Shown piece by piece: positions 1 to 17,304 of a stretch of 64,000 nt of DNA. Under the pieces are notes generated by a model that made no database searches, was not told the origin of the DNA, and worked only from the letters and a program-made list of their open reading frames with translations. Source of the DNA: Bacteroidales bacterium (lineage in GTDB: Bacteria; Bacteroidota; Bacteroidia; Bacteroidales; WCHB1-69). The position numbers were made by a program, and so were the translations under genes. The stretch is from assembly GCA_045116675.1 (NCBI GenBank), contig JBGUMF010000073.1, positions 9-64,008 of the forward strand, in the 5' to 3' direction. Each line of letters opens with the position of its first letter. Positions within the stretch are counted from its first letter, which is position 1.

Positions 1-120
1 TTCCAATTTCATTGCTAATTCCAGTGTCCAATACATAACTCTTACGAATAAAATTTATATGATTTTTTAGGGGTGCAAAGGTATAATAATTATAATAAAA
101 CACCTCAAAAAATTAAAATT

Positions 121-660
121 TTATTTCATTGATACATAATATGTTTCGGAAATCTCGTATTTTACATGGAAAAATCTTGCCAAAATAAAGAAATAATCGG
201 ACAGTCGATTCAGCACTTTTTGCACCTTGTTGTAAGCCTCTTCGGAGGCCATCAGGGCGACCACATTCCGTTCGGCGCGGCGGCACACCGTGCGGCACAC
301 GTGCGCGGTCGCGATCACCTCGTTGCCCTGGGGCAGGATGAAGCCCTTCCACGGCGGAAGCTGAGCCGAAAGGGTGTCGATTTCCCGCTCGATGTCCGAC
401 ACGAACGCATCCAGATCCACCTGTTTCCAATATTTCTCCCACAACGGGAGCGGCGTGGCCAGCATTCCACCCACGACAAACAATTTTTGCTGGATTTCTC
501 CCAAAAAAGGGACAGGTTCTTTCGAAATCATCACCCCGATGAACGCATTCAGTTCATCCACGGTACCGTATGCATCCAGTAGGTCGCAATTCTTATAAAC
601 TCTTGATCCATCGGACAATGAAGTCATTCCGGCATCCCCTGTTTTCGTATAAATCTTCAT
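121..660 (-). CDS. ATP:cob(I)alamin adenosyltransferase, PduO type
   Basis: The N-terminus MKIYTKTGDAGMTSL is the hallmark of PduO-type adenosyltransferases. The 179 aa length and ...CRRAER... helix-bundle motifs fit. Family assigned from memory. Confidence 0.85.
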   Translation of the reverse strand: MKIYTKTGDAGMTSLSDGSRVYKNCDLLDAYGTVDELNAFIGVMISKEPVPFLGEIQQKLFVVGGMLATPLPLWEKYWKQVDLDAFVSDIEREIDTLSAQLPPWKGFILPQGNEVIATAHVCRTVCRRAERNVVALMASEEAYNKVQKVLNRLSDYFFILARFFHVKYEISETYYVSMK

Positions 661-695
661 AAAAAAATTTTTTTTGCAAATGTATAAAAAAAATG

Positions 696-703
696 TATCT
701 TTG
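696..703 (+). promoter_or_regulatory. Bacteroidetes-type -7 box (TATCTTTG) upstream of tRNA-Lys
   Basis: Exact match to the TAnnTTTG -7 consensus of the Bacteroides primary sigma factor, 29 nt upstream of the tRNA 5' end. Confidence 0.5.
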
Positions 704-731
704 CCGCCGCAAAAGCAAAGAGAAAAAACAA

Positions 732-804
732 GTCTCCTTAGCTCAGTTGGTAGAGCAATTGACTCTTAATCAATGGGTCCAGGGTTCGAGTCCCTGAGGG
801 GACA
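732..804 (+). tRNA. tRNA-Lys (anticodon CTT)
   Basis: Cloverleaf folded by hand. Acceptor gtctcct/aggggac, D-arm agctcagttggtagagc, anticodon stem attga/tcaat with loop cTCTTaa (CUU), T-arm caggg-ttcgagt-ccctg. No encoded CCA. Confidence 0.9.
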
Positions 805-807
805 CTG

Positions 808-847
808 AAAGCACTCCAAACCTAATTCGTTCGGGGTGCTTTTTTTA
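808..847 (+). terminator. Intrinsic terminator after tRNA-Lys
   Basis: Stem gcactcc (811-817) pairs with ggggtgc (833-839), with one G-U pair, and is followed by a T7 run. Confidence 0.6.
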
Positions 848-874
848 TCCTTTTTGGTTCAAAAAAACTCGACA

Positions 875-3796
875 ATGAAAAAGATCATCCTGTTCCTGCT
901 TGTCCTCGCCACCGTACACGCGTGGGCGCAATCGCAATATGTGAACCCCTTTGTGGGTACCGACGGCCACGGGCACACCTTCCCCGGCGCCATCGTCCCT
1001 TTCGGGGCCGTGCAGGCCAGCCCCGACACGCGCCTCGACGGCTGGGACGGCTGCTCCGGCTACCACTACAGCGACAGCCGCATCTATGGTTTCTCGCACA
1101 CGCACCTCAGCGGCACCGGCTGCAGTGACTATGGGGACATCCTCATCATGCCGTTTTCGGGAAAGCCCTCCATACACAACGGCGAGTATTCCGCCACCTT
1201 CAGCCATAAGAACGAGCAGGCCTCGCCCGGCTACTACCGCGTGCAGCTGGACAACGGCGTGCTGGTGGAGCTCACCGCCGGCAAATATGTGGCCGTACAC
1301 CGCTACACCTTCCCCAAGAAAGGAGCCAAGGGCATCGTCATCGACCTCACGCACCGCGACAAGGTGTTGGCCTCCGGCATCACCCATCAGGGAAACGAGT
1401 TCTTCGGCTTCCGCCGCTCCGAGGCCTGGAATCCCGACCAGTACTGCGCCTTCTCCATCCTGCCCTCCACCCCCGTGCAGCGGGTCGAATATTTCTACAA
1501 CGACCAGCCCGCGGGCGACCATGACGTGCGCGGCGAGAACTGCAAGGCCATCCTCTACTTCGCCGACAACGTGCGCACCGTGACCCTCAACGTGGCCATC
1601 TCCGCCGTGGACATCCAAGGGGCCATGAACAACCAGAAAGAGCTTGCGAACCTCACCTTCGACCAGGTGCGGAAAAACGCCGTTTCCGCGTGGGACCGCG
1701 AACTGGGCAAAATCAAGGTGGAATCCGCCAACGAAGAGTATCTTAAAACATTTTATACAGCCTTATATCATTGTTTCACATCCCCTTACCTCTACTCGGA
1801 TTTGGACGGCCGCTACCGCGGCATGGACGGCGAAATCCATAACGGCGACGGCAAACACCAGATGTACACGGTGTTCTCGCTGTGGGACACCTACCGCGCC
1901 CTGCACCCGCTGCTCAACATCATCGACCGGAAGCGCACGGAGGATTTCCTCTACACGTTCATGCAGCAATACCGCCAAGGCGGGATGCTGCCCGTGTGGG
2001 AACTCTCGGCCCACGAGACCTGGTGCATGATCGGCTACCACTCCGTGCCCGTTATCCTGGACGCCTACGTCAAGGGCATCCACCCCTACGATGAAACGGA
2101 GATGCTGCAGGCGATGGTCCACAGCGCCACCCTGAACAAGCTCGGGCGGCCTGAGTATGCGAAACACGGCTACATCCCCGGCGACGCCGACAATGAATCC
2201 GTATCGAAGACCTTGGAGTACGCCTACGACGACTGGTGCATCGCGCAGTTCGCCACAAAGATACGCAATTTAGAGGTGGCCAACGAGTTCGACCGTCGCG
2301 CCGTATCCTACCGCAACATCCTGGACCCCAACGGGTTCATGCACGGCAAGATCAACGGCGGCTTCGTCGCCCCGTTCGACCCCACGGAGGTCAACAACTT
2401 CTACACCGAGGCCAACAGCTGGCAGTACTCCACTTACGTGCCGCACGACCTGTCGGGCTACATCTACGAAATGGGCGGCAGAGAGCGCACCGAGCAGTTC
2501 CTGGACCGTCTTTTCCACTCCGACTCTAAGATGACCGGCCGAGACCAGTCGGACATCACGGGCATCATCGGGCAGTACGCGCACGGCAACGAGCCCAGCC
2601 ACCACGCCGCCTACCTCTACAACGAGGTGCTGCGCTACGACAAGACCTGCGACATGGTCCGCAAGATCATGACGGAGCTCTACACCTCCAAGCCTGACGG
2701 CCTCTGCGGCAACGAAGACTGCGGCCAGATGTCGGCGTGGTACGTGTTCAGCGCCCTCGGATTCTACCCCGTCTGCCCGGGCAGCAACAGCTACTCGTTA
2801 GGTTACCCGCTCTTCGACCGCGCGACCATCACATTGGAAAATGGTAAAAGTCTGGTTATACGGAGGGAAGGCAAAGGCGACAACGTAGCCAACATCACCA
2901 TCAACGGCAAATCAATCATCAATCCGTACATGCATTTCGGATTCGACGACATCAAAAACGGCGGCGAGATTGTCTTCACCATGGGTTCCATGCCCACCAA
3001 CCGTTTCATGGGTGCCCGCGACGGCTACGCAACCAAAATCCCCGCCCCGCCCGTGCCCTACTTCTCCACCGACAAACGGAGTTTCAGCGAGCCCACGCGG
3101 GTGGAAATCCTAAACTACCGTCCCAACAACCTCCAGCTGAAAAGCTATGATGTGGACACGTGGGCCGAGACCGACATCTATTATACGACCGACGGCAGCA
3201 CACCCGCGCCCACGCACGGCACACGTTACGACAAGCCCATCAACGTGGACAAGGAGATGACCCTCAAGGCGATAGCCTACCATAAAGACCTCGGGGCCAG
3301 CCCCGTAGCCGAGGCCCATTATGTCTTCTTCAACAAAGACAAGACGCTCACCTACCTCACCCAGCCCAACCCGCAGTACTTCGCCGGCGGGAACGACGGC
3401 CTCATCGACGGCATCCGCGGCAAGGCCAACTGGCGTGTGGGCAGCTGGCAGGGCATCCAGGGCGACTTCGAGGCCGTCATCGACCTGCAGAAGAGCAAAG
3501 AGGTCAACCGCGTGACCGTCAGCTGTCTGGAAGACGTGCGGGCCTGGATTTTCTTCCCCTCCAAAGTGGAAATCTACATTTCGGACGATGGCGAGCACTA
3601 CACGCTGTTCGGTCGCACCGACGGCATCGGCTCCGAGAAATCGGAAGATGCCAAGCTGCACGAGTTTGTCGTAAACGGAAGCGGGAAAGGTCGTTACCTG
3701 AAAGTGAAGGCCACCAACTACGGCAAGCTGCCCGACTGGCACATCAGCGCGGGCCATCAGTCGTGGATGTTCTTGGATGAAATCACGGTGGACTGA
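875..3796 (+). CDS. GH92 alpha-mannosidase with C-terminal CHB_HEX_C-like and F5/8 type C (discoidin) domains
   Basis: Signal peptide MKKIILFLLVLATVHAWAQ, then the GH92 signature NPFVGTDGHGHTFPGA..PFG.VQ.SPDT. The C-terminus has DIYYTTDGSTP (chitobiase-C-like) and a discoidin-like segment. Start moved to the ATG at 875, since the ORF track begins at 836. Confidence 0.9.
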   Translation: MKKIILFLLVLATVHAWAQSQYVNPFVGTDGHGHTFPGAIVPFGAVQASPDTRLDGWDGCSGYHYSDSRIYGFSHTHLSGTGCSDYGDILIMPFSGKPSIHNGEYSATFSHKNEQASPGYYRVQLDNGVLVELTAGKYVAVHRYTFPKKGAKGIVIDLTHRDKVLASGITHQGNEFFGFRRSEAWNPDQYCAFSILPSTPVQRVEYFYNDQPAGDHDVRGENCKAILYFADNVRTVTLNVAISAVDIQGAMNNQKELANLTFDQVRKNAVSAWDRELGKIKVESANEEYLKTFYTALYHCFTSPYLYSDLDGRYRGMDGEIHNGDGKHQMYTVFSLWDTYRALHPLLNIIDRKRTEDFLYTFMQQYRQGGMLPVWELSAHETWCMIGYHSVPVILDAYVKGIHPYDETEMLQAMVHSATLNKLGRPEYAKHGYIPGDADNESVSKTLEYAYDDWCIAQFATKIRNLEVANEFDRRAVSYRNILDPNGFMHGKINGGFVAPFDPTEVNNFYTEANSWQYSTYVPHDLSGYIYEMGGRERTEQFLDRLFHSDSKMTGRDQSDITGIIGQYAHGNEPSHHAAYLYNEVLRYDKTCDMVRKIMTELYTSKPDGLCGNEDCGQMSAWYVFSALGFYPVCPGSNSYSLGYPLFDRATITLENGKSLVIRREGKGDNVANITINGKSIINPYMHFGFDDIKNGGEIVFTMGSMPTNRFMGARDGYATKIPAPPVPYFSTDKRSFSEPTRVEILNYRPNNLQLKSYDVDTWAETDIYYTTDGSTPAPTHGTRYDKPINVDKEMTLKAIAYHKDLGASPVAEAHYVFFNKDKTLTYLTQPNPQYFAGGNDGLIDGIRGKANWRVGSWQGIQGDFEAVIDLQKSKEVNRVTVSCLEDVRAWIFFPSKVEIYISDDGEHYTLFGRTDGIGSEKSEDAKLHEFVVNGSGKGRYLKVKATNYGKLPDWHISAGHQSWMFLDEITVD

Positions 3797-3801
3797 CAGA
3801 T

Positions 3802-3975
3802 GGCACGCGCGTGCCCGCCGCGAAATCACCGGTGTTGGAGACACCGCATCTTATTAACCCCAGATGAGCGCAGCGTAATCCGGGGACGTGGCGCGCCCCA
3901 TGTACCCCCTCGCGGCGCGGCAGGCGCGTGCCACGGAGATGTGGTGTGCCCGCCGCGCAAGGTACGCGCGGGCAT
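3802..3975 (+). repeat. GC-rich structured repeat, copy A (fills the gap between convergent GH92 and ORF6N genes)
   Basis: The core ggtgtTggagacacc...ttattaacCCCAGAtgagcgcagcgtaaTCCGGGG...cgcggcgcggcaggcgcgtgccacg...gcccgccgcg is shared with copies at 5129-5292 and 6294-6430. The outer ends are inverted-repeat-like (atggcacgcgcgtgcc / ggtacgcgcgggcat). Confidence 0.8.
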
Positions 3976-3981
3976 CTGGCA

Positions 3982-4599
3982 TCAGTCGCCCAATCGCTGT
4001 TTCAGCCTCGCAATCTCCTCCCTCAGTTCCCGGACCTCGGCATCATTCTCCCGCTTCACGGAATGTCGGAACTTGAACATCGCGAGGTTCAACTCGAAAG
4101 AGGTCTCCCTGCTTTGCCCGGGCAGGAGATCCGTAAGAAGGTCATCGATGAGCTGGCCGCCCCGATGCAGCAACCGGTTCTGCTCCTGCTTGCCCGCCTC
4201 GCTCTCCTCCACCTGCGGTAGCGCCACCATCACCCGCGACAGCTCCTTCAGCTTCGCGTAGGCCTCCACAATCGCGATGGTCGTCTCCACCGCCTTCGGA
4301 CTCTTCAGGATTGTGGCCAGCATATAGAGGCCCTTCTCGGTGAAAGCCTTGGGTGGATATTTTGAATGTTGTCCTCTTCCTAATTTCTTTAAGGTCGAAA
4401 ATTTCGACCTTAAAGATGATAGTTCTTCTTCCATCAACTCCCACACATACCCTTCTGGAAATTTTTCTGGGTTGTTACTGACGGCCTCATTAATGCGTTT
4501 GGTCTCTACGCCATACAACTCCGCCACATCGGCATCCAATATCACCTGCTGGTCCCGCAGGGTGATAATCTTGCTTTCTACATCAATAATATTAGTCAT
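3982..4599 (-). CDS. ORF6N (KilA-N-like) domain DNA-binding protein
   Basis: The N-terminus IITLRDQQVILDADVAELYGVETKRINEAVSNNPEKFPEGYVWEL is typical of the ORF6N domain. The C-terminus is predicted coiled-coil (EVRELREEIARLKQRL). Confidence 0.8.
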   Translation of the reverse strand: MTNIIDVESKIITLRDQQVILDADVAELYGVETKRINEAVSNNPEKFPEGYVWELMEEELSSLRSKFSTLKKLGRGQHSKYPPKAFTEKGLYMLATILKSPKAVETTIAIVEAYAKLKELSRVMVALPQVEESEAGKQEQNRLLHRGGQLIDDLLTDLLPGQSRETSFELNLAMFKFRHSVKRENDAEVRELREEIARLKQRLGD

Positions 4600-4635
4600 T
4601 GCTTTAAGTGTTAAATTTAAATTAATTTATCACCG

Positions 4636-4643
4636 CAAAGATA
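4636..4643 (-). promoter_or_regulatory. -7 box (TATCTTTG on minus strand) for the ORF6N gene
   Basis: The reverse complement of caaagata matches TAnnTTTG, 37 nt upstream of the ATG at 4599. Confidence 0.5.
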
Positions 4644-4716
4644 CATCCAAAATCCGCATTTGTCAATGGAATTATGAAAATTTTTCAACCCTGATTATCA
4701 AATAAATATAAATTAA

Positions 4717-4749
4717 TTTGAATAAATCAATATTTAATAGTTAAATTTG
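4717..4749 (+). promoter_or_regulatory. Candidate orphan promoter (-33 TTTG, -7 TAAATTTG) pointing into the hairpin array
   Basis: TTTG at 4717-4720 and TAAATTTG at 4742-4749 are separated by 21 nt. No credible protein-coding ORF lies downstream before 5621. Confidence 0.4.
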
Positions 4750-4860
4750 CAACACAACTTCGGAAATAAATCGCTTCATACTGCAAATTTCAGGTTATTG
4801 GAATAAGATCCCATCACTGCAAACATAACTGCGTGTGCGTTATGCTTGCATCGCCAATAT

Positions 4861-5125
4861 GAATCCCCTCACGGGGATTGAAATTTGCCGGGCATCCGTT
4901 TTTGCTACAGGTATGCATCCCCTACGGGGATTATGGAGCACGGCAAGTTGCCATACAACATAGAATCCCGTCAAGGATTCCATCTCTGTGGCACATTGCA
5001 TCCCAAAGGTTTCCACAGAACCCCGTAGGGGGTCCATATCTGTAACGATGCGTCCCCGATGGTCTCCGCAGAACCCCGTCAGGGGTTCCAGCTCGGTAGC
5101 CAGGGATGACAAACCCAGGGAAAAC
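4861..5125. repeat. Degenerate tandem array of short GC-stem hairpins (REP/BIME-like)
   Basis: There are at least 7 units of the form (g/c)a(a/t)CCCC-nnnn-GGGG(a/t)t. Examples are gaatCCCCtcacGGGGattg 4861, gcatCCCCtacGGGGatta 4915, gaatCCCgtcaaGGattc 4963, gaaCCCCgtagGGGGtcc 5018 and gaaCCCCgtcaGGGGttcc 5071. The last two roughly 52-nt super-units (4998-5049 and 5050-5101) are clearly homologous. Confidence 0.75.
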
Positions 5126-5128
5126 AGG

Positions 5129-5292
5129 AGCGTGCCACAGCGAAAACGCTGGTGTCGAAGACACCACATCTCATTAACCCCAGATGAGCGCAGCGTAATC
5201 TGGGGGAGATAATGCGCGCCCACGGCACCCGCGCGGCGCGGCAGGCGCGGGCCACGAAGATGTGTGCGGGCCGCCGCGAAACGACAACGCGA
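5129..5292 (+). repeat. GC-rich structured repeat, copy B
   Basis: ggtgtcgaagacacc...cattaacCCCAGAtgagcgcagcgtaaTCTGGGG...cgcggcgcggcaggcgcgggccacgaag...ggccgccgcgaaa. Same orientation as copies A and C. Confidence 0.8.
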
Positions 5293-5464
5293 AATAAGGG
5301 AGAAATCTTTTGCCAAAACCATAACAGACCATGCAAGTCAACAAGGGCATCAGAATTGCATTTTTCTCCGAAATACGACGAACAAATCATCAGACACCCA
5401 AACAATACAACAATAATAATTTACAATTTATTGATTTTATGTAAAATAAAATTATCATACAACA

Positions 5465-5496
5465 CTTGACAAAGGACACTCTTTGCATTATATTTG
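5465..5496 (+). promoter_or_regulatory. Candidate promoter (-33 cTTG, -7 TATATTTG) for the toxin-antitoxin pair
   Basis: TATATTTG at 5489-5496 matches TAnnTTTG, with TTG at 5466-5468. Confidence 0.45.
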
Positions 5497-5620
5497 CAAA
5501 TGAACCTAAAAGAAAGAAAACATGTATCGAAAATCTAATGTGAACAAATCTCCTATAGTGTATTTTGTGTATTTTTGCAACCGCAACACGGAGGTGTCGT
5601 CTTATCCCTTAGACAAAAGC

Positions 5621-5857
5621 ATGGGTACCTATAATATAATATTGAACGATGAACTGGTCGAGAAGGCCCGTCCGGCTTTCCCCGACGAGAATGCTTTGCA
5701 ATGTTGGTTGCAGGAACAAGTTGTCGATGCCCTGGAACGCCTTGTCAAAAAAAATTCCGAAGCCAATCAATGTGCTATGGTGAAAGAAAGCATGACAAGG
5801 GCTTTTGAAGAATTGCATTCCGGTCGTGTCAAAAAAAACGCCAGAGAACTCTTTTAA
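5621..5857 (+). CDS. Small protein, putative antitoxin of the downstream RelE/ParE-like toxin
   Basis: 78 aa (MGTYNIILNDELVEKARPAF...). It ends 14 nt before the toxin ATG and has a small acidic/helical composition. No family recognised. The start is uncertain, since the ORF track begins at 5522. Confidence 0.5.
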   Translation: MGTYNIILNDELVEKARPAFPDENALQCWLQEQVVDALERLVKKNSEANQCAMVKESMTRAFEELHSGRVKKNARELF

Positions 5858-5871
5858 CTGACGCACAGACG

Positions 5872-6216
5872 ATGGAAGTGGAGTTTGATTATTTGCCCGA
5901 ATTTGAAAGGCGGGCAAAGGCTTTGGCGAAGAAATACCAATCATTCACAGCAGATTATCAAACATTTCTGGATGAATTGGAGAACAATCCATTCGGCGGG
6001 GAATCGCTTGGACACAACACGTACAAATACCGAATGGCCATCACCTCGAAAGGCAGAGGCAAACGTGGCGGTGCAAGAGTGATCACATACAACTTGACCC
6101 AGACGGAGGATTCTTTAAGGATCACATTAATGTCTATATACGACAAGTCTGAAATTAGCAATGTTTCAACAGCATACCTTCGCCAATTAGTTCAATCTAT
6201 TGAGGAAAATCATTGA
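5872..6216 (+). CDS. RelE/ParE-superfamily toxin (Gp49/HigB-like, GGARVI motif)
   Basis: 114 aa. The pattern FL.EL..NP..G..LG...YK.R.AI.SKG.GKRGGARVI is typical of Bacteroidetes RelE/ParE-family toxins. Confidence 0.75.
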   Translation: MEVEFDYLPEFERRAKALAKKYQSFTADYQTFLDELENNPFGGESLGHNTYKYRMAITSKGRGKRGGARVITYNLTQTEDSLRITLMSIYDKSEISNVSTAYLRQLVQSIEENH

Positions 6217-6293
6217 GAACGGCCCAATGTTGCCCAGCCCGACCGATTTAGGGATTCCTATTTGTTTCACGATAACACTTGGACTAAGACTGC

Positions 6294-6430
6294 ACCGGTG
6301 TCGGAGACACCATATTTTATTAACCCCGGATGAGCGCAGCGTAATCCGGGGACGTGGCGCACCCCTTGTACCCCCTCGCGGCGCGGCAGGCGCGTGCCAC
6401 GAAGCTATGGATTTGCCGCCGCGCAACGCG
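6294..6430 (+). repeat. GC-rich structured repeat, copy C
   Basis: ggtgtcggagacacc...ttattaacCCCGGAtgagcgcagcgtaaTCCGGGG...cgcggcgcggcaggcgcgtgccacgaag...gccgccgcgcaa. Very close to copy A by eye over the core. Confidence 0.8.
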
Positions 6431-6991
6431 AGCCTCCCTCATCCATCTCCCCTTCACCCGCAATTCACCACCCCTCAATCCACATGACAATTAGCTTTCC
6501 CCCACACTTGCCATTCCCTGCTGCTGCCCATTGTTCGGCGACAAAGAATCTGTTTTTGCTTTCCAACACCCCGTTTGCTTCGAAACGGAATTGCAAAATT
6601 AACAATTCAAAAAACACAATTGTTAAATTATTTTTGCAAAAAGCTGATTATCAACCAGAAAAAATTTTCACAAAGCCCTTGACAAAACCTTCCGTCGGAG
6701 TTACTTTTGACAACAAAAACAATTAACCGAAATATGAACCCAACCACACACGATTCCAGCAACAGATCCATCCTCGATGACCACTTCATCTAAGCAATCA
6801 GCCAGGCCTTCGCAATGCCCACTAAAGAGTTGTCAGTTGTCAATTATCAGTTAGGAGTTGAAACCTGAAACCTTTAACTTTTTAACTTCTTCACTCCTTA
6901 GTTTTTCAACTCCCCCACTACCCCGCCCTTCGGGCACCCCTTCTCAAGAAGGGGAATGACGCTCCCCCTTAACTTCTTAACTCAATTCACT

Positions 6992-7567
6992 ATGGAACAC
7001 CTTGACCAAATCCAAAATCTCATCTACAACATCCGTGGACAACGCGTGATGATCGACTATGACCTTGCTCGTATCTATCAAGTGGAAACAGGGCAACTGA
7101 AGCGTCAAGTTCGGCGCAATATTGAACGTTTTGAAGGTGATGATTTCATGTTTGAAATCACACACGAAGAACTCTTGAGATGCCAAATTGGCACCTCAAG
7201 CTGGGGAGGCAGTCGTTATGGAGCTTTCGCCTTTACAGAATTAGGCGTAGCAATGCTTAGCGGTGTCCTTAATTCAAAAGTAGCTGTTGATGCAAACCGA
7301 AAAATAATGCGTGCCTTTGTCTGCTATCGACATATGGCGGAGATGCCCCTCGCTGCCACCTATATCGAATTGCGAAAACAGATCGAGGATCTCAGAGCCG
7401 AAGTAAATGATATCCTGGCGGACCAGAACGAGATCAACGAGCACACCCGTGCACAGCTGGATGCCATCAGCACGGTTTTGTCGGAATTACAGGCCTCAGA
7501 ACCCACGTCCCGATGCCGGCCCATCGGCTATATTCGTCCTACAGAGGAGGAAGGTAATGAACCATGA
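6992..7567 (+). CDS. ORF6N (KilA-N-like) domain protein
   Basis: IYNIRGQRVMIDYDLARIYQVETGQLKRQVRRNIERFEGDDFMFEIT is paralogous to the 3982-4599 product. Start chosen at MEHLDQ; the ORF track begins at 6956. Confidence 0.75.
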   Translation: MEHLDQIQNLIYNIRGQRVMIDYDLARIYQVETGQLKRQVRRNIERFEGDDFMFEITHEELLRCQIGTSSWGGSRYGAFAFTELGVAMLSGVLNSKVAVDANRKIMRAFVCYRHMAEMPLAATYIELRKQIEDLRAEVNDILADQNEINEHTRAQLDAISTVLSELQASEPTSRCRPIGYIRPTEEEGNEP

Positions 7568-7595: not shown

Positions 7596-8426
7596 ATGAA
7601 AAAAAATATCGACACAACAAACGAAGGCGAGATCATCCTCTACCAACCCGACAACAATGTACGGTTGGAGGTGCGGATGCATGAGGAAACAGTATGGTTA
7701 AACAGACAGCAAATGGCAATTCTTTTTACTAGAGATATAAAGACTATCGGCAAACATATCAATAATGCTCTACAAGAAGAATTGTCCGATTTTCCAGTTG
7801 TCGCAAAATTTGCGACAACTGCCAGAGATGGCAAAACGTATCAAGTAGAGCACTATAACCTTGATATGATACTCTCTGTCGGATATCGTGTAAAATCCAA
7901 ACGTGGTGTCGAATTTCGAAAATGGGCAAACTCTGTACTCAAAGAGTATCTCTTGCGCGGATATGCTATCAACCAGCGATTTGAACGGCTGGAGCAGCGG
8001 GTTGCCAAAACCGAAGAGCAAATAGGTTTCTTTGTGAGCACTGCATTGCCTCCCGTGCAGGGTGTGTTCTACGACGGACAGATATTCGATGCCTACACCT
8101 TCGTGGCGGACCTGGTTCGCTCGGCACGGGAGCGGATTATCCTCATCGACAACTACGTGGACGACTCCGTCTTGAAGATGCTCACCAAACGGAACGAGGA
8201 CGTCAGCGCGACCATTATCACACGGAAGATTTCGGACGCGCTGGCCGTGGACGTCGCACGCCACAACCAACAATATCCGCCAGTGGACATCCAAACCTCC
8301 GATCGCTTCCACGACCGCTTCCTCATCATCGACGACACCGTCTATCACCTCGGTGCCTCGATGAAAGATTTGGGGAAGAGATTGTTTGCATTTTCAAAAT
8401 TGAATATACCGGCACATAACCTGTGA
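7596..8426 (+). CDS. RhuM-family N-terminal domain fused to a PLD-like (HxRx4D) C-terminal domain
   Basis: The N-terminus IILYQPDNNVRLEVRMHEETVWLNRQQMAILF...YNLDMILSVGYRVKSKRGVEFRKWANSVLKEYLLRGY is the RhuM signature. The C-terminus has RIILIDNYVDDSVLKML....HDRFLIIDDTVYHLGASMKDLGK. Confidence 0.75.
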   Translation: MKKNIDTTNEGEIILYQPDNNVRLEVRMHEETVWLNRQQMAILFTRDIKTIGKHINNALQEELSDFPVVAKFATTARDGKTYQVEHYNLDMILSVGYRVKSKRGVEFRKWANSVLKEYLLRGYAINQRFERLEQRVAKTEEQIGFFVSTALPPVQGVFYDGQIFDAYTFVADLVRSARERIILIDNYVDDSVLKMLTKRNEDVSATIITRKISDALAVDVARHNQQYPPVDIQTSDRFHDRFLIIDDTVYHLGASMKDLGKRLFAFSKLNIPAHNL

Positions 8427-8469: not shown

Positions 8470-10734
8470 TTATAGCACCACCTCGCCGGTCTCGGCATCC
8501 AACAGCAAGGTCTGGAAGGGGTTCAGGACCAAAGAGACTACTTTGCCATTGCGCAAGCGGATGGTGCGCTTGCCCCCATCTTTCGTGTGAATCATCACCA
8601 GTCCCGAGCCCGCCACCACGGCATCCGAGTCCTCATTATAAATATGGCACCCGGCATCCCGGAACAGGTGCTGCCACAAGCGGCAGTCCACCATCGGGAG
8701 GCCCACAAAACAGTCCGTAAAACTATCGTGCCTCTTGCGGGCCGCAGCCATCGAACCGTCCGGATAATAGGCCAACGGCACCGCCGCATCATCCTTGACA
8801 CGGAAAAAGACTTGCTGCCAGGACATCCCGCCCCGCTTATTACTCATGAAAATCGTCTTGCCCACTTCGGCAATCCGCTCTCCCGGCTGAAACAGGGTAT
8901 CCCAAGCGTTCACAAACCGCATGTCGGGAATCGAATCCGCATAAAACGCATCCACCTCCATGCCTGCGCACTCCCGCACATGCCGCACATCCAAGGTGCG
9001 TCCGTCGTTGAACCCCGGGGCCGTCAGCCACACCAGCGTGCGGCCGTCACGGGCCACCTCGCGACGAATCCACTGCCGAAGCTCCGGCTCAATATGGAAA
9101 CAATTCACGAAAACCACGACCTTGAATGTTGCCAACGGCATCTGTTTCAAATCCGACAAATAACAGGTGGCCACGGAGGCGCCGGACTTGAATGCCTCGA
9201 TCGTCACCACGTCCACAGATGTCTGGTCGGTAATCGGGTCATCCGTGTCGCGGCTGGCGGTATGGTAAAACACTTTCGTGTCATACACCATCAGCACATC
9301 CGCCGGATTATCCTGATTATGATGAAAAAAACGTTCCTCCACCTGCTTCATGCGGGCAATTTCCGCCATATAGTCGGGATCATCCCACCAGCCCGTCGTC
9401 ATAATGGGCCCGAAATCATAATACCACATCCCGCCGCCTCGCAGGAAGGGATGGAGCACGAACTTGCGCAGGATCTGGATGCTTTCGGCCTTGGGATAAC
9501 GCTGCAGGCCGCCCAGCATGATGAAACCGTAATGGCTGGGCTGGTCCATCTCGTCGAGCCACAGTTTCCCATGCAGGTTCACCGACTCGACCAGCCCGCG
9601 CGACACTCCGGGCCCGCCGGGCAGACGGCTGTTCTTGTTGTACGCCTGCGGGGCGGAGAGGAAATCCACATACGGGGAGTTGAGCACATCCTCCTCGCGC
9701 AAATGGCCGCCCGCCGCCTGCCGCCCGAACATCGAGAGATAATATCCATAGAAACAACCCACCACTACTGGACGCGGCCACGACTCCTTCACAATCTTGG
9801 CGAAATAGTTGATGCTATTGGTAACAGCCTGATGCTGACAATCATAATAATCGATAATAGCCTGCTCGCGTTGCGGGTCGCGAAAGATGCCCGCAGAGGT
9901 CTGATGCCGCTCCATGCCCGGCACCGAGGCGGTGGCCAGCGTGACCTCCGAATTGTTCCAAGCCTTCCGAAGAGCCTTGTCGTTATGATACTTCTCCGTC
10001 AGATATGCCCGGAAATAGCGCTGCATCGGCTCCGACACGTCGGGGTCGTGCCGCACGAAGGCCCAATAATGGTTTTCCCCGTTCACGCCCATCGTCAGCT
10101 GAAGGCCCATCACGTGTCTTCCTTCCGGCGTGTCGGCAAAGTCACGGCAGAACTGCCGCACCATCGCCCCCATCTCCTCCAGCCAACGCCGGGAGGCATA
10201 GCTGCATCGCGCAACGGTGTCCAAATCTTTCCACAGGTAGTTCTGATAGGCCGGGCGGTAGGGTTCCTCGGCCAGGCCAGCATCGGCAAAGCGGGTACAC
10301 TCTTCCGGATGCTGGCGAAGCCATCGGAAGGTGGGGTTGCAATGCAAACGGAACATCACCGCCGCCTGCGGACAATGGGCCAACACCCCGCGCACCTGGC
10401 GCACCGCCTCCCCAATGTCCAACGAGCCATCTTCCGTTATCATCTCTTCAAACCATAAATCCAGCTGGTACAACGTAAAGCCTGCATCGGCAAACAAGGC
10501 GATATTGTGCGACGGCCCCGCCTCATATGAGCGGTTACCCGTTGGACGGTCGGTGAGCGCGTAAAACTGGGGTACCACGGGCACATCATTGATATAGAGC
10601 GCCGGACGACCCTTGTAAGGCTTCACCTCCGCCCGCTCCACGCGATAGTCGGCATCCGTCTGCGCCAACAACGGACATGTCCACCCGAACATTCCTATGC
10701 TCAGGCAAATCCACAACATTCGAATCTGTTTCAT
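8470..10734 (-). CDS. Secreted putative glycoside hydrolase (GH42-like TIM barrel plus GATase1-like middle domain)
   Basis: Signal peptide MKQIRMLWICLSIGMFGWTCPLLAQ. The overall architecture and the KVVVFVNCFH...LVWLTAPGF segment recall GH42 beta-galactosidase-type proteins. The family is not firmly recognised. Confidence 0.4.
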   Translation of the reverse strand: MKQIRMLWICLSIGMFGWTCPLLAQTDADYRVERAEVKPYKGRPALYINDVPVVPQFYALTDRPTGNRSYEAGPSHNIALFADAGFTLYQLDLWFEEMITEDGSLDIGEAVRQVRGVLAHCPQAAVMFRLHCNPTFRWLRQHPEECTRFADAGLAEEPYRPAYQNYLWKDLDTVARCSYASRRWLEEMGAMVRQFCRDFADTPEGRHVMGLQLTMGVNGENHYWAFVRHDPDVSEPMQRYFRAYLTEKYHNDKALRKAWNNSEVTLATASVPGMERHQTSAGIFRDPQREQAIIDYYDCQHQAVTNSINYFAKIVKESWPRPVVVGCFYGYYLSMFGRQAAGGHLREEDVLNSPYVDFLSAPQAYNKNSRLPGGPGVSRGLVESVNLHGKLWLDEMDQPSHYGFIMLGGLQRYPKAESIQILRKFVLHPFLRGGGMWYYDFGPIMTTGWWDDPDYMAEIARMKQVEERFFHHNQDNPADVLMVYDTKVFYHTASRDTDDPITDQTSVDVVTIEAFKSGASVATCYLSDLKQMPLATFKVVVFVNCFHIEPELRQWIRREVARDGRTLVWLTAPGFNDGRTLDVRHVRECAGMEVDAFYADSIPDMRFVNAWDTLFQPGERIAEVGKTIFMSNKRGGMSWQQVFFRVKDDAAVPLAYYPDGSMAAARKRHDSFTDCFVGLPMVDCRLWQHLFRDAGCHIYNEDSDAVVAGSGLVMIHTKDGGKRTIRLRNGKVVSLVLNPFQTLLLDAETGEVVL

Positions 10735-16107: not shown

Positions 16108-17304
16108 TTATTTGGTTGCGTCGATAGCCTGTTTGATCAGTTGGAACGTGCACTCCGGATCGTTATCCAAGCCCATGGAGAAACGGATGAGGCCTTCGCT
16201 CATGCCCATTTCCTTCTGGATATCCTCAGGAACCTCGGAAGAGGTGGACTTGCCGGAGTTGCTGAACAGCGTCTTGAAGTAGCCGAGGCTGACGGCGAGG
16301 TAACCCACGCCCAGCTCCTGCATCTTCTCCATGATGGCGCTGGCTCTCTCAGCCGTGCCCATGTCGATGGAGATCATGCCGCCGAAACCGTAGCCATCGT
16401 TCATCATCGATTTGAACAGCTCGTGGTCAGGATGCTCGGGAAGGCCGGGATAGTTGTACTTGATGCCCGTCTCTTTGAAACGTTTGGCCAAGTACATGGC
16501 ATTCTCACTATGTTTCTTCATACGGATATGCAGCGTGTGAAGATTCTTCTGGATGCTGGTGGAACGGAACGTGTCCAACACGGGACCAAGCAACATGGCC
16601 GTACCGTCGTTCACATCGATCAGGGAGTTGATATATTCGGCGGAACCGCAGATGGCACCGGCCACGCAGTCGTTCATACCGTTCACATATTTGGTCATAC
16701 TGTAGATCACCACATCCGCACCGAGACGGTAGGGAGAGAATATCATCGGGGTGAAGGTATTGTCAACCAGCAACTTTGCGCCAGCGGCGTGGGCAATCTT
16801 GGAAAGCTCGGGCAGGTTGGCGATGCGGAGCAGCGGATTGTTCATCGTCTCCGTATAAAGGACCTTGGTATTCGGACGGATGGCCTTCTTCACAGCGTCG
16901 AGGTCCTGCATGTTCACGAACGTGACCTCCACATTGAATTTCTTGAGGTAGTTGTTCAGGAAGGCGAACGTACCACCGTAGGTCGTCATGCTGGAGACGA
17001 TATGGTCGCCGGATTTCACCTCGTGCAGCAAAGCCACGGTAATGGCGGCCATGCCGGAACCGGTTGTCCAGGCCAGCTCGGTACCCTCGATGGCGGCCAA
17101 TGACTGCGCCAGAGAAAGCGTGCTGGGATTCCAGTGACGGGAATAGAGGAAATAGCCTTCCGTTTCACCGTGGAAGGTGTCGGTCATCGTCTTGGCCTGT
17201 TCAAACATAAAGGTGGCACTGTCGCAAATGGCCGGATTGACACCACGGTAGGCATCTTTTTTGTCCAATCTTTCAAGGTTGGTTGCGGGATCGAATTTTT
17301 CCAT
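16108..17304 (-). CDS. Cys/Met-metabolism PLP-dependent enzyme (methionine gamma-lyase / O-acetylhomoserine sulfhydrylase family)
   Basis: YSRHWNPS..., the DNTF motif and the PLP-lysine motif SMTKYVNG place it in this family. The exact reaction cannot be assigned. Confidence 0.75.
   Translation of the reverse strand: MEKFDPATNLERLDKKDAYRGVNPAICDSATFMFEQAKTMTDTFHGETEGYFLYSRHWNPSTLSLAQSLAAIEGTELAWTTGSGMAAITVALLHEVKSGDHIVSSMTTYGGTFAFLNNYLKKFNVEVTFVNMQDLDAVKKAIRPNTKVLYTETMNNPLLRIANLPELSKIAHAAGAKLLVDNTFTPMIFSPYRLGADVVIYSMTKYVNGMNDCVAGAICGSAEYINSLIDVNDGTAMLLGPVLDTFRSTSIQKNLHTLHIRMKKHSENAMYLAKRFKETGIKYNYPGLPEHPDHELFKSMMNDGYGFGGMISIDMGTAERASAIMEKMQELGVGYLAVSLGYFKTLFSNSGKSTSSEVPEDIQKEMGMSEGLIRFSMGLDNDPECTFQLIKQAIDATK

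Follow-up and report, generated by a model that had tools for sequence, protein, structure and literature searches.

Structured repeats in bacterial intergenic regions

Structured repeats between genes have been studied extensively in Proteobacteria and Firmicutes. REPs are imperfect palindromes of 20-40 nt with a 5' GT[AG]G at the hairpin foot; they are dispersed in high copy number through genomes that carry a RAYT (TnpA-REP) gene, which as a rule has such repeats on its flanks. The BIMEs of E. coli and the BOX elements of Streptococcus pneumoniae are mosaic intergenic repeats composed of separable hairpin modules. To our knowledge, such repeats have hardly been studied in Bacteroidales, and we know of no integron attC-like system that has been characterised in the phylum to which this order belongs. 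TnpA-REP subclasses 2.4 and 2.6 have been reported in Bacteroidetes, and subclass 2.6 is associated with "atypical secondary structures" without GT[AG]G (PMC6006769). FopS, a multicopy sRNA of Bacteroides, has its own promoter, a single-stranded seed, a Rho-independent terminator and an Rfam entry (PMC11697453).

Three copies of a hairpin unit

The window, the whole 64-kb stretch of Bacteroidales DNA analysed here, carries three direct copies of a GC-rich, hairpin-forming unit on the + strand (A 3826-3965, B 5146-5286, C 6292-6431). They are mutually 73-90% identical and lie inside 2.6 kb. In each copy the linker AUCUYAWUAA joins hairpin H1 to hairpin H2, and a spacer then separates H2 from S3, a long GC hairpin. 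The features of the locus are as follows.

3801..3825, + strand: remnant flanking copy A on its left; perfect palindrome GGCACGCGCGTGCC, then CGCCGCGAAA
3826..3965, + strand: copy A, full unit (cmsearch 113.8 bits, E 2e-25)
3830-3846: copy A H1, CGGTGTT-GGA-GACACCG
3847-3857: copy A linker
3858-3885: copy A H2, followed by the spacer
3910-3917 with 3951-3958: copy A S3 outer stem
4717..4749, + strand: full Bacteroidetes promoter consensus TTTG-N21-TAAATTTG (pattern search)
5146..5286, + strand: copy B, full unit (cmsearch 128.6 bits, E 7e-29)
5150-5166: copy B H1, TGGTGTC-GAA-GACACCA
5178-5205: copy B H2
5231-5238 with 5272-5279: copy B S3 outer stem
5522..6216, + strand: pair of small ORFs in the B-C interval, one of 111 aa without assigned function and one of 114 aa, RelE-like (Pfam)
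6292..6431, + strand: copy C, full unit (cmsearch 125.4 bits, E 4e-28)
6297-6311: copy C H1
6324-6351: copy C H2
6376-6383 with 6417-6424: copy C S3 outer stem

The H1 core GGTGTY-GRA-GACACC lies at 3831-3845 (A), 5151-5165 (B) and 6297-6311 (C); as the original prediction had it, this hairpin is common to the three copies, with a T.G pair beside the loop in A and the loop GAA in B. The second shared hairpin that it described is equally real: H2 reads CCCCRGAT-GAGCGCAGCGTA-ATCYGGGG in every window copy, a pattern with three matches against 0.00 expected in shuffles. The fifth stem pair of H2, from which a compensatory change had been deduced, is indeed A.C in A, A-T in B and G-C in C, and the downstream block CGCGGCGCGGCAGGCGCG(T/G)GCCACG is conserved in all three. 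One compensatory change in three copies proves little by itself; statistical support comes only from an enlarged alignment. Searching the 64-kb window with a covariance model built from relatives recovers copies A, B and C (113.8-128.6 bits, E 2e-25 to 7e-29) and no further match better than E 0.69.

A large stem closing around both hairpins had also been proposed. In copy A, 3801-3815 is an inverted match of 3919-3933 and the MFE fold closes a large stem there, but this stem is confined to copy A and its orthologue at locus L001. The direct repeat GCCCGCCGCG(A/C)AA is found at both ends of copy A, as had been noticed (3811-3825 and 3946-3960). Both features exist because the left flank of this copy, 3801..3825, looks like the collapsed S3 hairpin of an adjoining unit. 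Similar left-side remnants accompany copy B (5125-5147), L001 copy 2 and L005 copy 2.

A modular family with covarying helices

The three copies are members of a previously uncatalogued, modular family of hairpin-forming intergenic repeats in ruminant-gut Bacteroidales. Relatives occur in four GTDB rumen Bacteroidales MAGs and at six metagenome-scan loci (L027, L031, L084, L088, L102 and L106), and others came from contigs that were located by way of spurious ORFs running through the element. The hosts are uncultured rumen lineages. The strict H2 pattern occurs at only five loci in 185,579 species genomes (GTDB scan), and plasmids, phages and viral contigs gave no match to the element. At the Rfam 15 gathering threshold only two tRNAs appear in the window, and the element has no match at E<=10 over 3700-6600 or in eight related loci; the view that it belongs to no named RNA family therefore stands. 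No known MITE matches it either. The unit ends, (G/A)CACC... and ...GCGMAAVG, are not inverted repeats, and no target-site duplication is seen at the flanks of copy C or of L005 copy 1, two units without neighbouring remnants (both by eye), so that a MITE was rejected.

A full unit measures ~140 nt, or ~185 nt in "type 2" units with an extra tail containing an A7 tract. H1 has a stem of 6-7 bp with a constant top, UC-GRA-GA, and a covarying lower part. It is followed by the conserved, AU-rich linker AUCUYAWUAA and by H2, which stands on a CCCC/GGGG foot and ends in either the REP-type apex AGAU-G.A-AGC-GNA-GC(G)U-A-AUCU or a short stem with a GNRA cap. Next come ~25 nt of spacer, with CYCC at the end, and then the long hairpin S3, whose outer stem CGCGGYG/CRCCGCG covaries. 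The linker and the CCCC foot are the most conserved primary sequence, mini units included, and some members exchange the H2 apex for CAC-GUAA/GUGA-GUG or GAC-GUGA-GUC. The 14-nt loop originally called invariant is so within the window, but not across the family, whose GNA triloops differ in the middle base and sometimes give way to a GNRA tetraloop at the apex.

Alignment A4 comprises 21 distinct copies from rumen or ruminant-gut Bacteroidales contigs. Across the three helices 97.5% of cells are paired, and both sides have changed in 13 of the 23 pairs; examples are C-G 12 / U-A 9 and C-G 10 / G-C 6 / A-U 4 in H1, and C-G 10 / U-A 10 in S3. The alignment has a covariation score of 0.295, the shuffles one of 0.128, and none of 500 shuffles reached the observed values. 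When the pairing partners are slid as a control, pairing drops to 31-60%. The hairpins are under selection to pair. The covariation first suspected from the window thus survived on more copies, and with it the proposal of a folded RNA or a structured single-stranded DNA site in place of neutral decay.

Local multiplication and strain variation

Units multiply locally as tandems and head-to-head pairs, and they differ between close strains. Tandem copies are found in the window, L001, L005 and L132, and head-to-head pairs in L002, L140, L129, L004 and L027; in L002 and L140 these pairs lie between divergent genes, each unit directed towards its own gene. Modules consisting of H1 and H2 only occur in L136, L131 and L132, and one unit has H1 and S3 without H2 (L004 7062-7177). 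Some related contigs hold 2-9 family members in 6-11 kb, and L084 carries nine in 6.7 kb, 100-nt mini units among them.

Locus L001 is 94% identical to window positions 1-4353 (blastn) and orthologous to the window locus. It lacks the toxin-antitoxin pair and has, instead of copies B and C, a single hybrid copy that is B-like on the left and C-like on the right. The three-way alignment places the junction at the S3 apex or 3' arm, outside the longest identical block. The units mark strain-variable spots, namely the toxin-antitoxin pair and a 53-nt repeat block. They also break metagenome assemblies.

Genes and promoters around the units

Copy A begins ~30 nt past the stop of a GH92 gene (3796) and ends 17 nt short of the stop (3982) of a convergent ORF6N gene. 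The RelE-like gene stops at 6216, ~75 nt before copy C begins, and ~200 nt lie between the end of this copy and the first -7 box downstream, which precedes a second ORF6N gene. Copy B has the + strand promoter consensus 396 nt upstream and the promoter of the toxin-antitoxin pair ~200 nt downstream. The consensus pattern has three matches against 0.59 expected, the other two preceding tRNA-Lys and a real gene. No ORF follows the match at 4717..4749 for ~770 nt, and this predicted promoter would drive + strand transcription of the 53-nt hairpin block and copy B. The window copies bracket small accessory units: ORF6N, the RelE-like pair, and then ORF6N with RhuM (Pfam).

Elsewhere, the neighbours are unrelated housekeeping genes (arginase-family, GHMP kinase, tRNA-Asp, metK/gidA, nusB, ligA) or accessory genes (a ParE pair in L131, KilA-N in L084, an AbiEii-like ATPase in L088, DUF3791 in L003), with no constant partner gene. 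A TAnnTTTG -7 box lies on the same strand 71-116 nt past the unit in 12 of the 26 scanned copies, and at ~+200 for window copies B and C. The scan found copy A, L129, L003 and L005 to be without a co-oriented downstream promoter.

Relation to REP hairpins and preferred reading

With 28 nt, an 8-bp lower stem and an A-U/G-C/C-G apex, H2 is an imperfect palindrome within the 20-40 nt size range of REPs, and its helices are 98-100% paired in the 21 copies. Its apex is identical over 18-26 nt to GTAG-tagged REP hairpins of environmental contigs, the longest identity being GTAG-CCCGGATGAGCGCAGCGTAATCCGGG. Of 102 distinct occurrences of the 18-mer GATGAGCGCAGCGTAATC outside Bacteroidales in the metagenome scan, 71 have it at the apex of a hairpin with a GT[AG]G foot. 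On two of these short contigs a near-full-length RayT homologue is encoded beside the hairpin (phmmer E 5e-58 and 8e-55); another contig has a partial homologue.

The best reading, to which we give about even credence, is a REP/BIME/BOX-like mosaic repeat, that is, an array of single-stranded hairpins served in trans by a nuclease of the RAYT kind, and not a canonical REP. The units would act as single-stranded hairpins, and a RAYT-like (TnpA-REP) nuclease of the HUH/Y1 type, supplied in trans, would recognise them through H2 with its 5' NTAA foot. Such a nuclease may nick the units and copy them via single-stranded DNA. On transcription of a unit the same hairpins would fold in RNA: copies A and C lie just past + strand stop codons and copy B downstream of a + strand promoter. 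Being long direct repeats, the copies would also be recombination substrates, and recombination between them would most simply account for a toxin-antitoxin pair that is gained or lost in the B-C interval.

Several observations weigh against this mosaic-repeat reading. The H2 5' foot is UUAA, AUAA or GUAA in 21 of 21 copies instead of GT[AG]G. An E. coli RayT query gave no RAYT/Y1 match at E<=10 (phmmer, six frames) in the window and related Bacteroidales loci (~220 kb), while the positive controls L054 and L067 were recovered; a single-copy RAYT gene could easily lie outside these ~220 kb. Copy density is low, with three copies in one cluster in 64 kb, and the strict H2 pattern is rare in species genomes. 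Head-to-head pairs with each unit facing the adjacent gene sit poorly with the replication-strand bias expected of IS200/IS605-type ssDNA mobility. The GNRA caps suit RNA at least equally well, as does the predominance of G:U-type cells over A:C-type cells in the helices (16:1), and the regular abutment of units on the upstream edge of the next promoter, aimed at that gene, is not predicted by a repeat model.

Alternative explanations

One alternative, held tentatively and with some doubt, makes the unit chiefly a structured RNA that acts in cis: transcribed within neighbouring transcripts (as 3' UTR, operon spacer or long leader), it would fold into H1, H2 and S3. Once folded, it may, to name some possible roles, form a 3'-end or stabilising structure, insulate the promoter that follows, or offer a docking site to an RNA-binding protein that recognises the conserved linker and loops. 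All three helices carry compensatory changes, GNRA tetraloops and GRA triloops cap helices of differing sequence, and + strand transcription is expected at all three window copies (after the GH92 stop, after the RelE-like stop and from the promoter consensus). A sense H1-H2 module occupies the 86-nt spacer from a T9SS-tail gene to ybeY, and the unit is co-oriented with the downstream gene in ~13 of 17 loci (hand tally). The 16:1 ratio applies to the + strand, but it comes from a model-fitted alignment and amounts to ~8:2 as independent events; the G.T-pairing argument for REPs as RNA was also made by Di Nocera et al. (PMC3733652). Against an RNA role, both L005 copies and L003 are antisense to both flanking genes, and L128, L132 and L140 lie between divergent genes with no upstream promoter motif. 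Whole-unit MFE has no strand preference, the minus strand being stabler in 20 of 36 copies (Wilcoxon p 0.33), and H1 with the linker resembles a terminator only weakly. Neither a conserved TAnnTTTG upstream of H1 nor a U-tract past S3 was found, and the flanks upstream of H1 are unrelated between loci. An independent sRNA gene, with its own promoter at a fixed distance and an intrinsic terminator, was rejected on these grounds, and the analysis gave no support to a discrete transcript of 130 nt. The promoter-proximal placement could instead reflect a double-stranded DNA module of promoter-upstream regions, where a DNA-binding protein or bending (the A7 tract of type 2 units) affects the adjacent promoter in an orientation-dependent manner. 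The same-strand -7 boxes, the divergent pairs of L002 and L140 and the strong conservation of linker and CCCC foot even in mini units all suit it. Nevertheless it is very unlikely: pairing-preserving covariation is unexpected for the operator half-sites of one protein, copy A, L129, L003 and L005, without a co-oriented downstream promoter, do not fit, and the upstream edge of a promoter is simply where short intergenic regions tolerate insertions.

The accessory genes suggest another role, that of a folded single-stranded recombination site analogous to attC, at which a site-specific recombinase moves small self-promoted cassettes (toxin-antitoxin, ORF6N/KilA-N). Direct repeats bracket such genes in the window, the RelE-like pair of the window is missing from L001, whose hybrid unit has its junction at the S3 apex or 3' arm, other members adjoin the ParE pair, KilA-N, the AbiEii-like ATPase and DUF3791, and the bulged G and G.A mismatch of the imperfect hairpin are irregularities of the kind that strand-selective recombinases read. 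Yet this role is highly improbable. No integrase or recombinase lies beside the cluster (Pfam, 121-20947), the attC core sites R'' RYYYAAC and R' GTTRRRY are absent at the unit ends, two findings on which attC itself was rejected, many members sit between housekeeping genes, the cassettes carry their own promoters, and homologous recombination between 140-nt direct repeats accounts for the polymorphism equally well. It is likewise unlikely, if somewhat less so, that the REP hairpin and its extra hairpins are ssDNA sites at which an HUH or other recombinase inserts and excises small self-promoted cassettes in Bacteroidales. If true, this would be a functional analogue of integron attC, with the RelE-like pair polymorphism and its S3-apex hybrid as the footprint of an event. 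Finally, neutral decay of local duplications, with structure as a by-product of GC-rich palindromic sequence, could be argued from the similarity of the window copies, their clustering and their folding z-scores of only -2.5 to -3.4 (single-sequence folding). It is barely credible and was rejected: the covariation of the 21-copy alignment contradicts it, the family extends over several species-level MAGs and many loci where stem sequences differ yet pair, and pairing collapses in the sliding controls. An origin of the alignment from a few recent duplicates is excluded because the H1 and S3 sequences are diverse.

Significance

The family has a clean three-hairpin architecture with covariation support, and its units may affect gene expression and genome plasticity in rumen Bacteroidales. 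The REP-identical H2 apex raises the testable question of whether REP/RAYT systems or hairpins alone cross phyla, and of which factor recognises them in Bacteroidales. Should the family prove to be a selfish repeat and no more, it provides a useful annotation and a candidate entry for Rfam or a repeat library, with no new mechanism.

Comparison with known systems

Compared with the FopS/GibS sRNAs of Bacteroides, the rumen family is also multicopy, non-coding and found in Bacteroidales, but it shows no promoter, seed or terminator feature of FopS and has no Rfam match. Like the MITEs (Correia/NEMIS, ERIC, RUP), the units are short, structured, non-coding, multi-copy and gene-adjoining, and may carry or abut promoters. 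With integron attC sites they share structure conserved above sequence, an imperfect hairpin with extrahelical bases, and direct repeats that separate small accessory genes, one pair of which is polymorphic. Unlike attC sites, they have no R''/R' cores or nearby integrase, the cassettes are self-promoted, and many copies stand amid housekeeping genes.

The REP/REPIN-RAYT systems (IS200/IS605-type Y1 HUH) differ from the family in their GT[AG]G foot, where it has NTAA. Its H2 never stands alone but always with H1 and usually with S3, no RAYT is found in ~220 kb, the window has a single cluster, and the strict pattern is rare in genomes. The likeness lies in the 28-nt imperfect palindrome of H2 with its GC-rich foot, G.A mismatch and bulged G, in the 18-26 nt of apex identity to GT[AG]G-tagged REPs, some of them beside RayT homologues, and in an intergenic position, inverted doublets and stems that tolerate G.T pairs. 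From BIMEs and BOX the family is set apart by its sequences, host phylum and module set, by a strongly conserved single-stranded linker, and by the regular placement just upstream of promoters in 12 of 26 scanned copies. It nevertheless has the properties of a mosaic repeat, in that separable modules vary in combination, copy number and orientation, and like BIMEs and BOX it forms clusters in both orientations, without a transposase of its own, from units of ~100-200 nt.

Copies in the window and their neighbours

Reading of positions 3500-6800, together with a repeat search, confirmed three direct copies on the + strand: A (3826-3965), B (5146-5286) and C (6292-6431). Each unit comprises hairpin H1, the linker AUCUYAWUAA, hairpin H2, a spacer and a long GC hairpin, S3. 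H1 (GGTGTY-GRA-GACACC) is present as the original prediction described it, and the H2 pattern CCCCRGAT-GAGCGCAGCGTA-ATCYGGGG has three matches in the window versus 0.00 expected in shuffles. The compensatory series at the fifth H2 pair also holds, with A.C in copy A, A-T in copy B and G-C in copy C, as does the conservation of the block CGCGGCGCGGCAGGCGCG(T/G)GCCACG; 3801-3815 and 3919-3933 do match in inverted orientation. Pfam searches placed the copies among the following genes.

Genes around the three copies
836-3796, +, GH92 glycosidase gene; its stop precedes copy A
3982-4599, -, ORF6N gene, convergent; its stop borders copy A
5522-5857, first gene of a two-gene unit; 111-aa ORF of unknown function
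5872-6216, second gene of the unit; 114-aa ORF, weakly RelE-like
6956-7567, +, second ORF6N gene
7596-8426, RhuM-family gene

Copy A thus lies between two gene ends, the GH92 stop on one side and the convergent ORF6N stop on the other. Copy B sits inside a 920-nt gap between the first ORF6N gene and the two-gene unit, and copy C lies beyond that unit, ahead of the second ORF6N gene and the RhuM-family gene. Ordinary housekeeping genes lie beyond, and no recombinase was found by Pfam up to 20.9 kb of the window.

The same region holds several other features. The ORF6N paralogues are oppositely oriented. Their promoter regions each carry one 42-nt arm of an inverted repeat (4659-4700 and 6645-6686); the arms show 74% complementarity over a distance of 1.9 kb, and inversion of the intervening DNA is conceivable in principle. 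A 754-aa ORF at 8470-10734 (-) has no Pfam match at E<=0.01; a 623-aa ORF (8587-10458) overlaps it on the other strand. Positions 4855-5110 hold roughly five degenerate hairpin units that repeat every ~53 nt (e.g. AAYCCCGTNAGGGGTYCC...). They are too diverged to yield rows from Tandem Repeats Finder, and the main family's covariance model does not match them.

The locus differs in L001, an orthologue with 94% identity across window positions 1-4353. There, the 53-nt hairpin block (~4805-5095) is entirely missing, copy A occupies the same site, and only one second copy follows. The left part of this second copy resembles copy B and its right part and downstream flank resemble copy C, with the switch inside S3, at its apex or in its 3' arm. 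The RelE-like two-gene unit (5522-6216) is absent (compared with L001 1-265): either it was deleted by recombination between the direct repeats B and C, or it arrived with one unit.

Secondary structure and covariation

The selected structure proposed in the original prediction proved right, and its support comes from a family-wide alignment rather than from the three window copies alone. In alignment A4, consisting of 21 distinct copies, RNAalifold predicted H1, H2 and the outer S3 stem. Standard pairs fill 97.5% of helix cells (88.3% in shuffles), 13 of the 23 pairs show changes on both sides (5.1 in shuffles), and the covariation score is 0.295 versus 0.128; none of 500 shuffles attained any of these three values. 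When the 3' partners were slid by one to three columns, pairing fell to 31-60%.

Covariation is clearest in H1, whose lower stem varies through GGUGUC, GGCAUC, UGCCUC, GUCUC, GACCUC, GGCCUC and UGUCC, with a matching 3' arm every time. The outer S3 stem switches between C-G and U-A, 10 to 10, and one member carries CGCAGCA/UGCUGCG. The best reading of the H2 apex is that the imperfect stem carries on through it: a G.A mismatch is followed by A-U, G-C and C-G pairs and a GNA triloop, with one G bulged out. The middle base of the triloop is C, U or A, and in some members the entire apex is swapped for a short GNRA-capped stem. Kink-turn, hammerhead-like and loop-E readings of this apex were dropped by eye, as they call for tandem G.A pairs or a paired stem II, which this apex lacks. 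The finding is real, and its structural interpretation is supported by this pairing and covariation.

Members and forms of the family

A one-genome-per-species exact scan matched the H2 pattern in five stretches only, each belonging to a rumen Bacteroidales MAG, and a metagenome scan using the 18-nt apex added further Bacteroidales copies. MAGs with members of the family include JAFZKY01, JAIKYR01, JAFXSR01 and JAEETJ01. Because several reading frames run open across the element, a protein collection was also searched with profiles of its spurious translations, and all contigs fetched in this way came from ruminant-gut samples. A second search of this type, aimed at extra type 1 copies, returned type 2 relatives only. 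The cassette was sought in other contexts by exact look-ups of the proteins that the window encodes (RelE-like, antitoxin-position and ORF6N), which gave only same-arrangement short contigs or nothing, and a literature search for the 15-mer sequence found no paper.

Members in the collected loci, listed by nhmmer and a covariance model, take several forms. Type 1 is the GC-rich form of the window, L001 and the related locus L005. Type 2 shares its H1-linker-H2 core, with an S3 of CGCGGUG...CACCGCGG and an extra tail, AGCCGAUGC-A7-CAUGCGGUAGCC. Mini units of ~100 nt have an H2 of CCCCGCAC-GUCA-GUGUGGGG and a 7-bp hairpin as S3. Other variants are modules of H1 and H2 only, and one unit without H2.

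Behaviour as a repeat and possible role as RNA

Direct tandems of units are found in the window, L001, L005 and L132, head-to-head inverted pairs 45-170 nt apart in L140, L002, L129, L004 and L027, and a dense array of nine members within 6.7 kb of locus L084. Nothing is common among the neighbouring genes across loci: many are housekeeping genes, and accessory neighbours include RelE/ParE pairs, ORF6N/KilA-N, RhuM, an AbiEii-like ATPase and DUF3791. A collapsed S3-like remnant ending GCGAAA precedes several type 1 units (copies A and B, and the second copies of L005 and L001). Such a remnant, left of the unit, explains both the closing stem and the terminal direct repeat that the original prediction noted in copy A. 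By eye, remnant-free unit ends carry neither terminal inverted repeats nor a target duplication. These elements are best described as a new modular hairpin repeat family of ruminant-gut Bacteroidales that works in a REP/BIME/BOX-like manner, and this repeat model has about an even chance of being right.

Locus L084 also contains two direct blocks of ~300 nt (2887-3184 and 4410-4791), each with three mini units (+,+,-), placed on either side of a GHMP-kinase gene and tRNA-Asp. Other, unrelated repeats (GCTGCCACGATGTGACAGCCCTACAT, twice) occur at ~4800-5026.

The main rival, partly compatible with the repeat model, is a cis-acting RNA role, which appears rather unlikely. Evidence on RNA versus DNA, and on the strand, is mixed. 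Loops of the GNRA and GRA types close the helices, and G:U-type helix cells outnumber A:C-type cells 16:1, or ~8:2 as independent events, in an alignment that is itself model-fitted. Transcription of the + strand is to be expected across all three window copies: A and C come just past stop codons and B 396 nt after a full promoter consensus; in locus L136, an H1-H2 module occupies an operon spacer in sense orientation. However, no conserved promoter or terminator was found, several copies run antisense to the genes on both sides or sit within a divergent gene pair, and the folding energy of whole units, considered as a guide to the strand, shows no preference. What the repeat model alone leaves unexplained is a regularity of placement, as units tend to sit, in fixed orientation, directly against the upstream end of the promoter that follows. 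A -7 box (TAnnTTTG) follows the unit at a nearly constant 71-116 nt on the same strand in 12 of 26 scanned copies and lies at about +200 for window copies B and C, and in head-to-head pairs between divergent genes each unit is aimed at its own gene.

The full Bacteroidetes promoter consensus, TTTG-N21-TAAATTTG, occurs at 4717-4749 (+), with no ORF for ~770 nt. A non-coding transcript started from this promoter would run across the 53-nt repeats and copy B. The window has just two further matches to the consensus, one ahead of tRNA-Lys (732-804) and one ahead of the gene at 16108-17304 (-).

Comparison with known RNAs, repeats and mobile elements

As predicted, the element belongs to no named RNA family: Rfam 15, searched with gathering as well as permissive thresholds, is silent on it (even at E<=10) and likewise in eight related loci, its only hits in the window being two tRNAs. 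Plasmids and phages (blastn) and viral contigs (exact scan) gave no match. A riboswitch or gene-specific leader was rejected because the neighbours are unrelated, an integron attC site because core sites are absent and no integrase was found up to 20.9 kb, and a MITE because no TIR or TSD was seen by eye. No RT, TnpB, IscB or recombinase ORF lies beside any copy, which argues against retron msr/msd, TnpB/IscB omega-RNA and IS110 bridge RNA. Only H1 and the linker are weakly terminator-like, in two copies, and terminator-like sites are not enriched (5 versus 4.0 expected), so an intrinsic terminator was set aside; a nut-like boxB-boxA reading of the same segment matches the boxA consensus at ~7 of 9 positions, too weak a resemblance to rely on. 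FopS/GibS were rejected since they are built differently and, unlike the present family, are represented in Rfam. The family is neither a MITE nor an attC site, and it falls outside Rfam.

Matches to the 18-mer of the H2 apex in the metagenome scan are mostly non-Bacteroidales. Among 102 distinct non-Bacteroidales occurrences, 71 place the 18-mer 4 nt after GT[AG]G, and 59 of those 71 have a complementary 4-bp foot (GGCG/CGCC, GGUG/CACC, CCCG/CGGG, GUCG/CGAC); the GT[AG]G-footed hairpins are often inverted doublets. These three features are the signature of GTAG-tagged REPs (PMC3733652). Near-full-length homologues of E. coli RayT, the TnpA-REP transposase used as query, adjoin the hairpin on two short contigs (E 5e-58 and 8e-55), and a third carries a RayT fragment. 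In these environmental contigs (L054, L067, L104), the 18-mer GATGAGCGCAGCGTAATC is the apex of GTAG-footed REP hairpins adjoining the RayT homologues. Given this foot and these neighbours, the H2 apex shares, at the sequence level, 18-26 identical nt with genuine REPs that accompany RAYT genes in other bacteria.

No RayT-like segment was found in the window or any collected Bacteroidales locus, which is weak evidence because RAYT genes are usually single-copy. A cognate TnpA-REP enzyme in the hosts is plausible, since Quentin et al. (PMC6006769) place TnpA-REP subclasses in Bacteroidetes: subclass 2.4, with canonical long REPs and three G-C pairs in the foot, and subclass 2.6, with atypical structures without GT[AG]G. 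The Bacteroidales family lacks the GT[AG]G foot, reading (U/G/A)UAA-CCCC where canonical REPs read GTAG-CCC. It therefore stands outside the canonical REP family; for one of its modules the best-supported identity is a REP-type hairpin.
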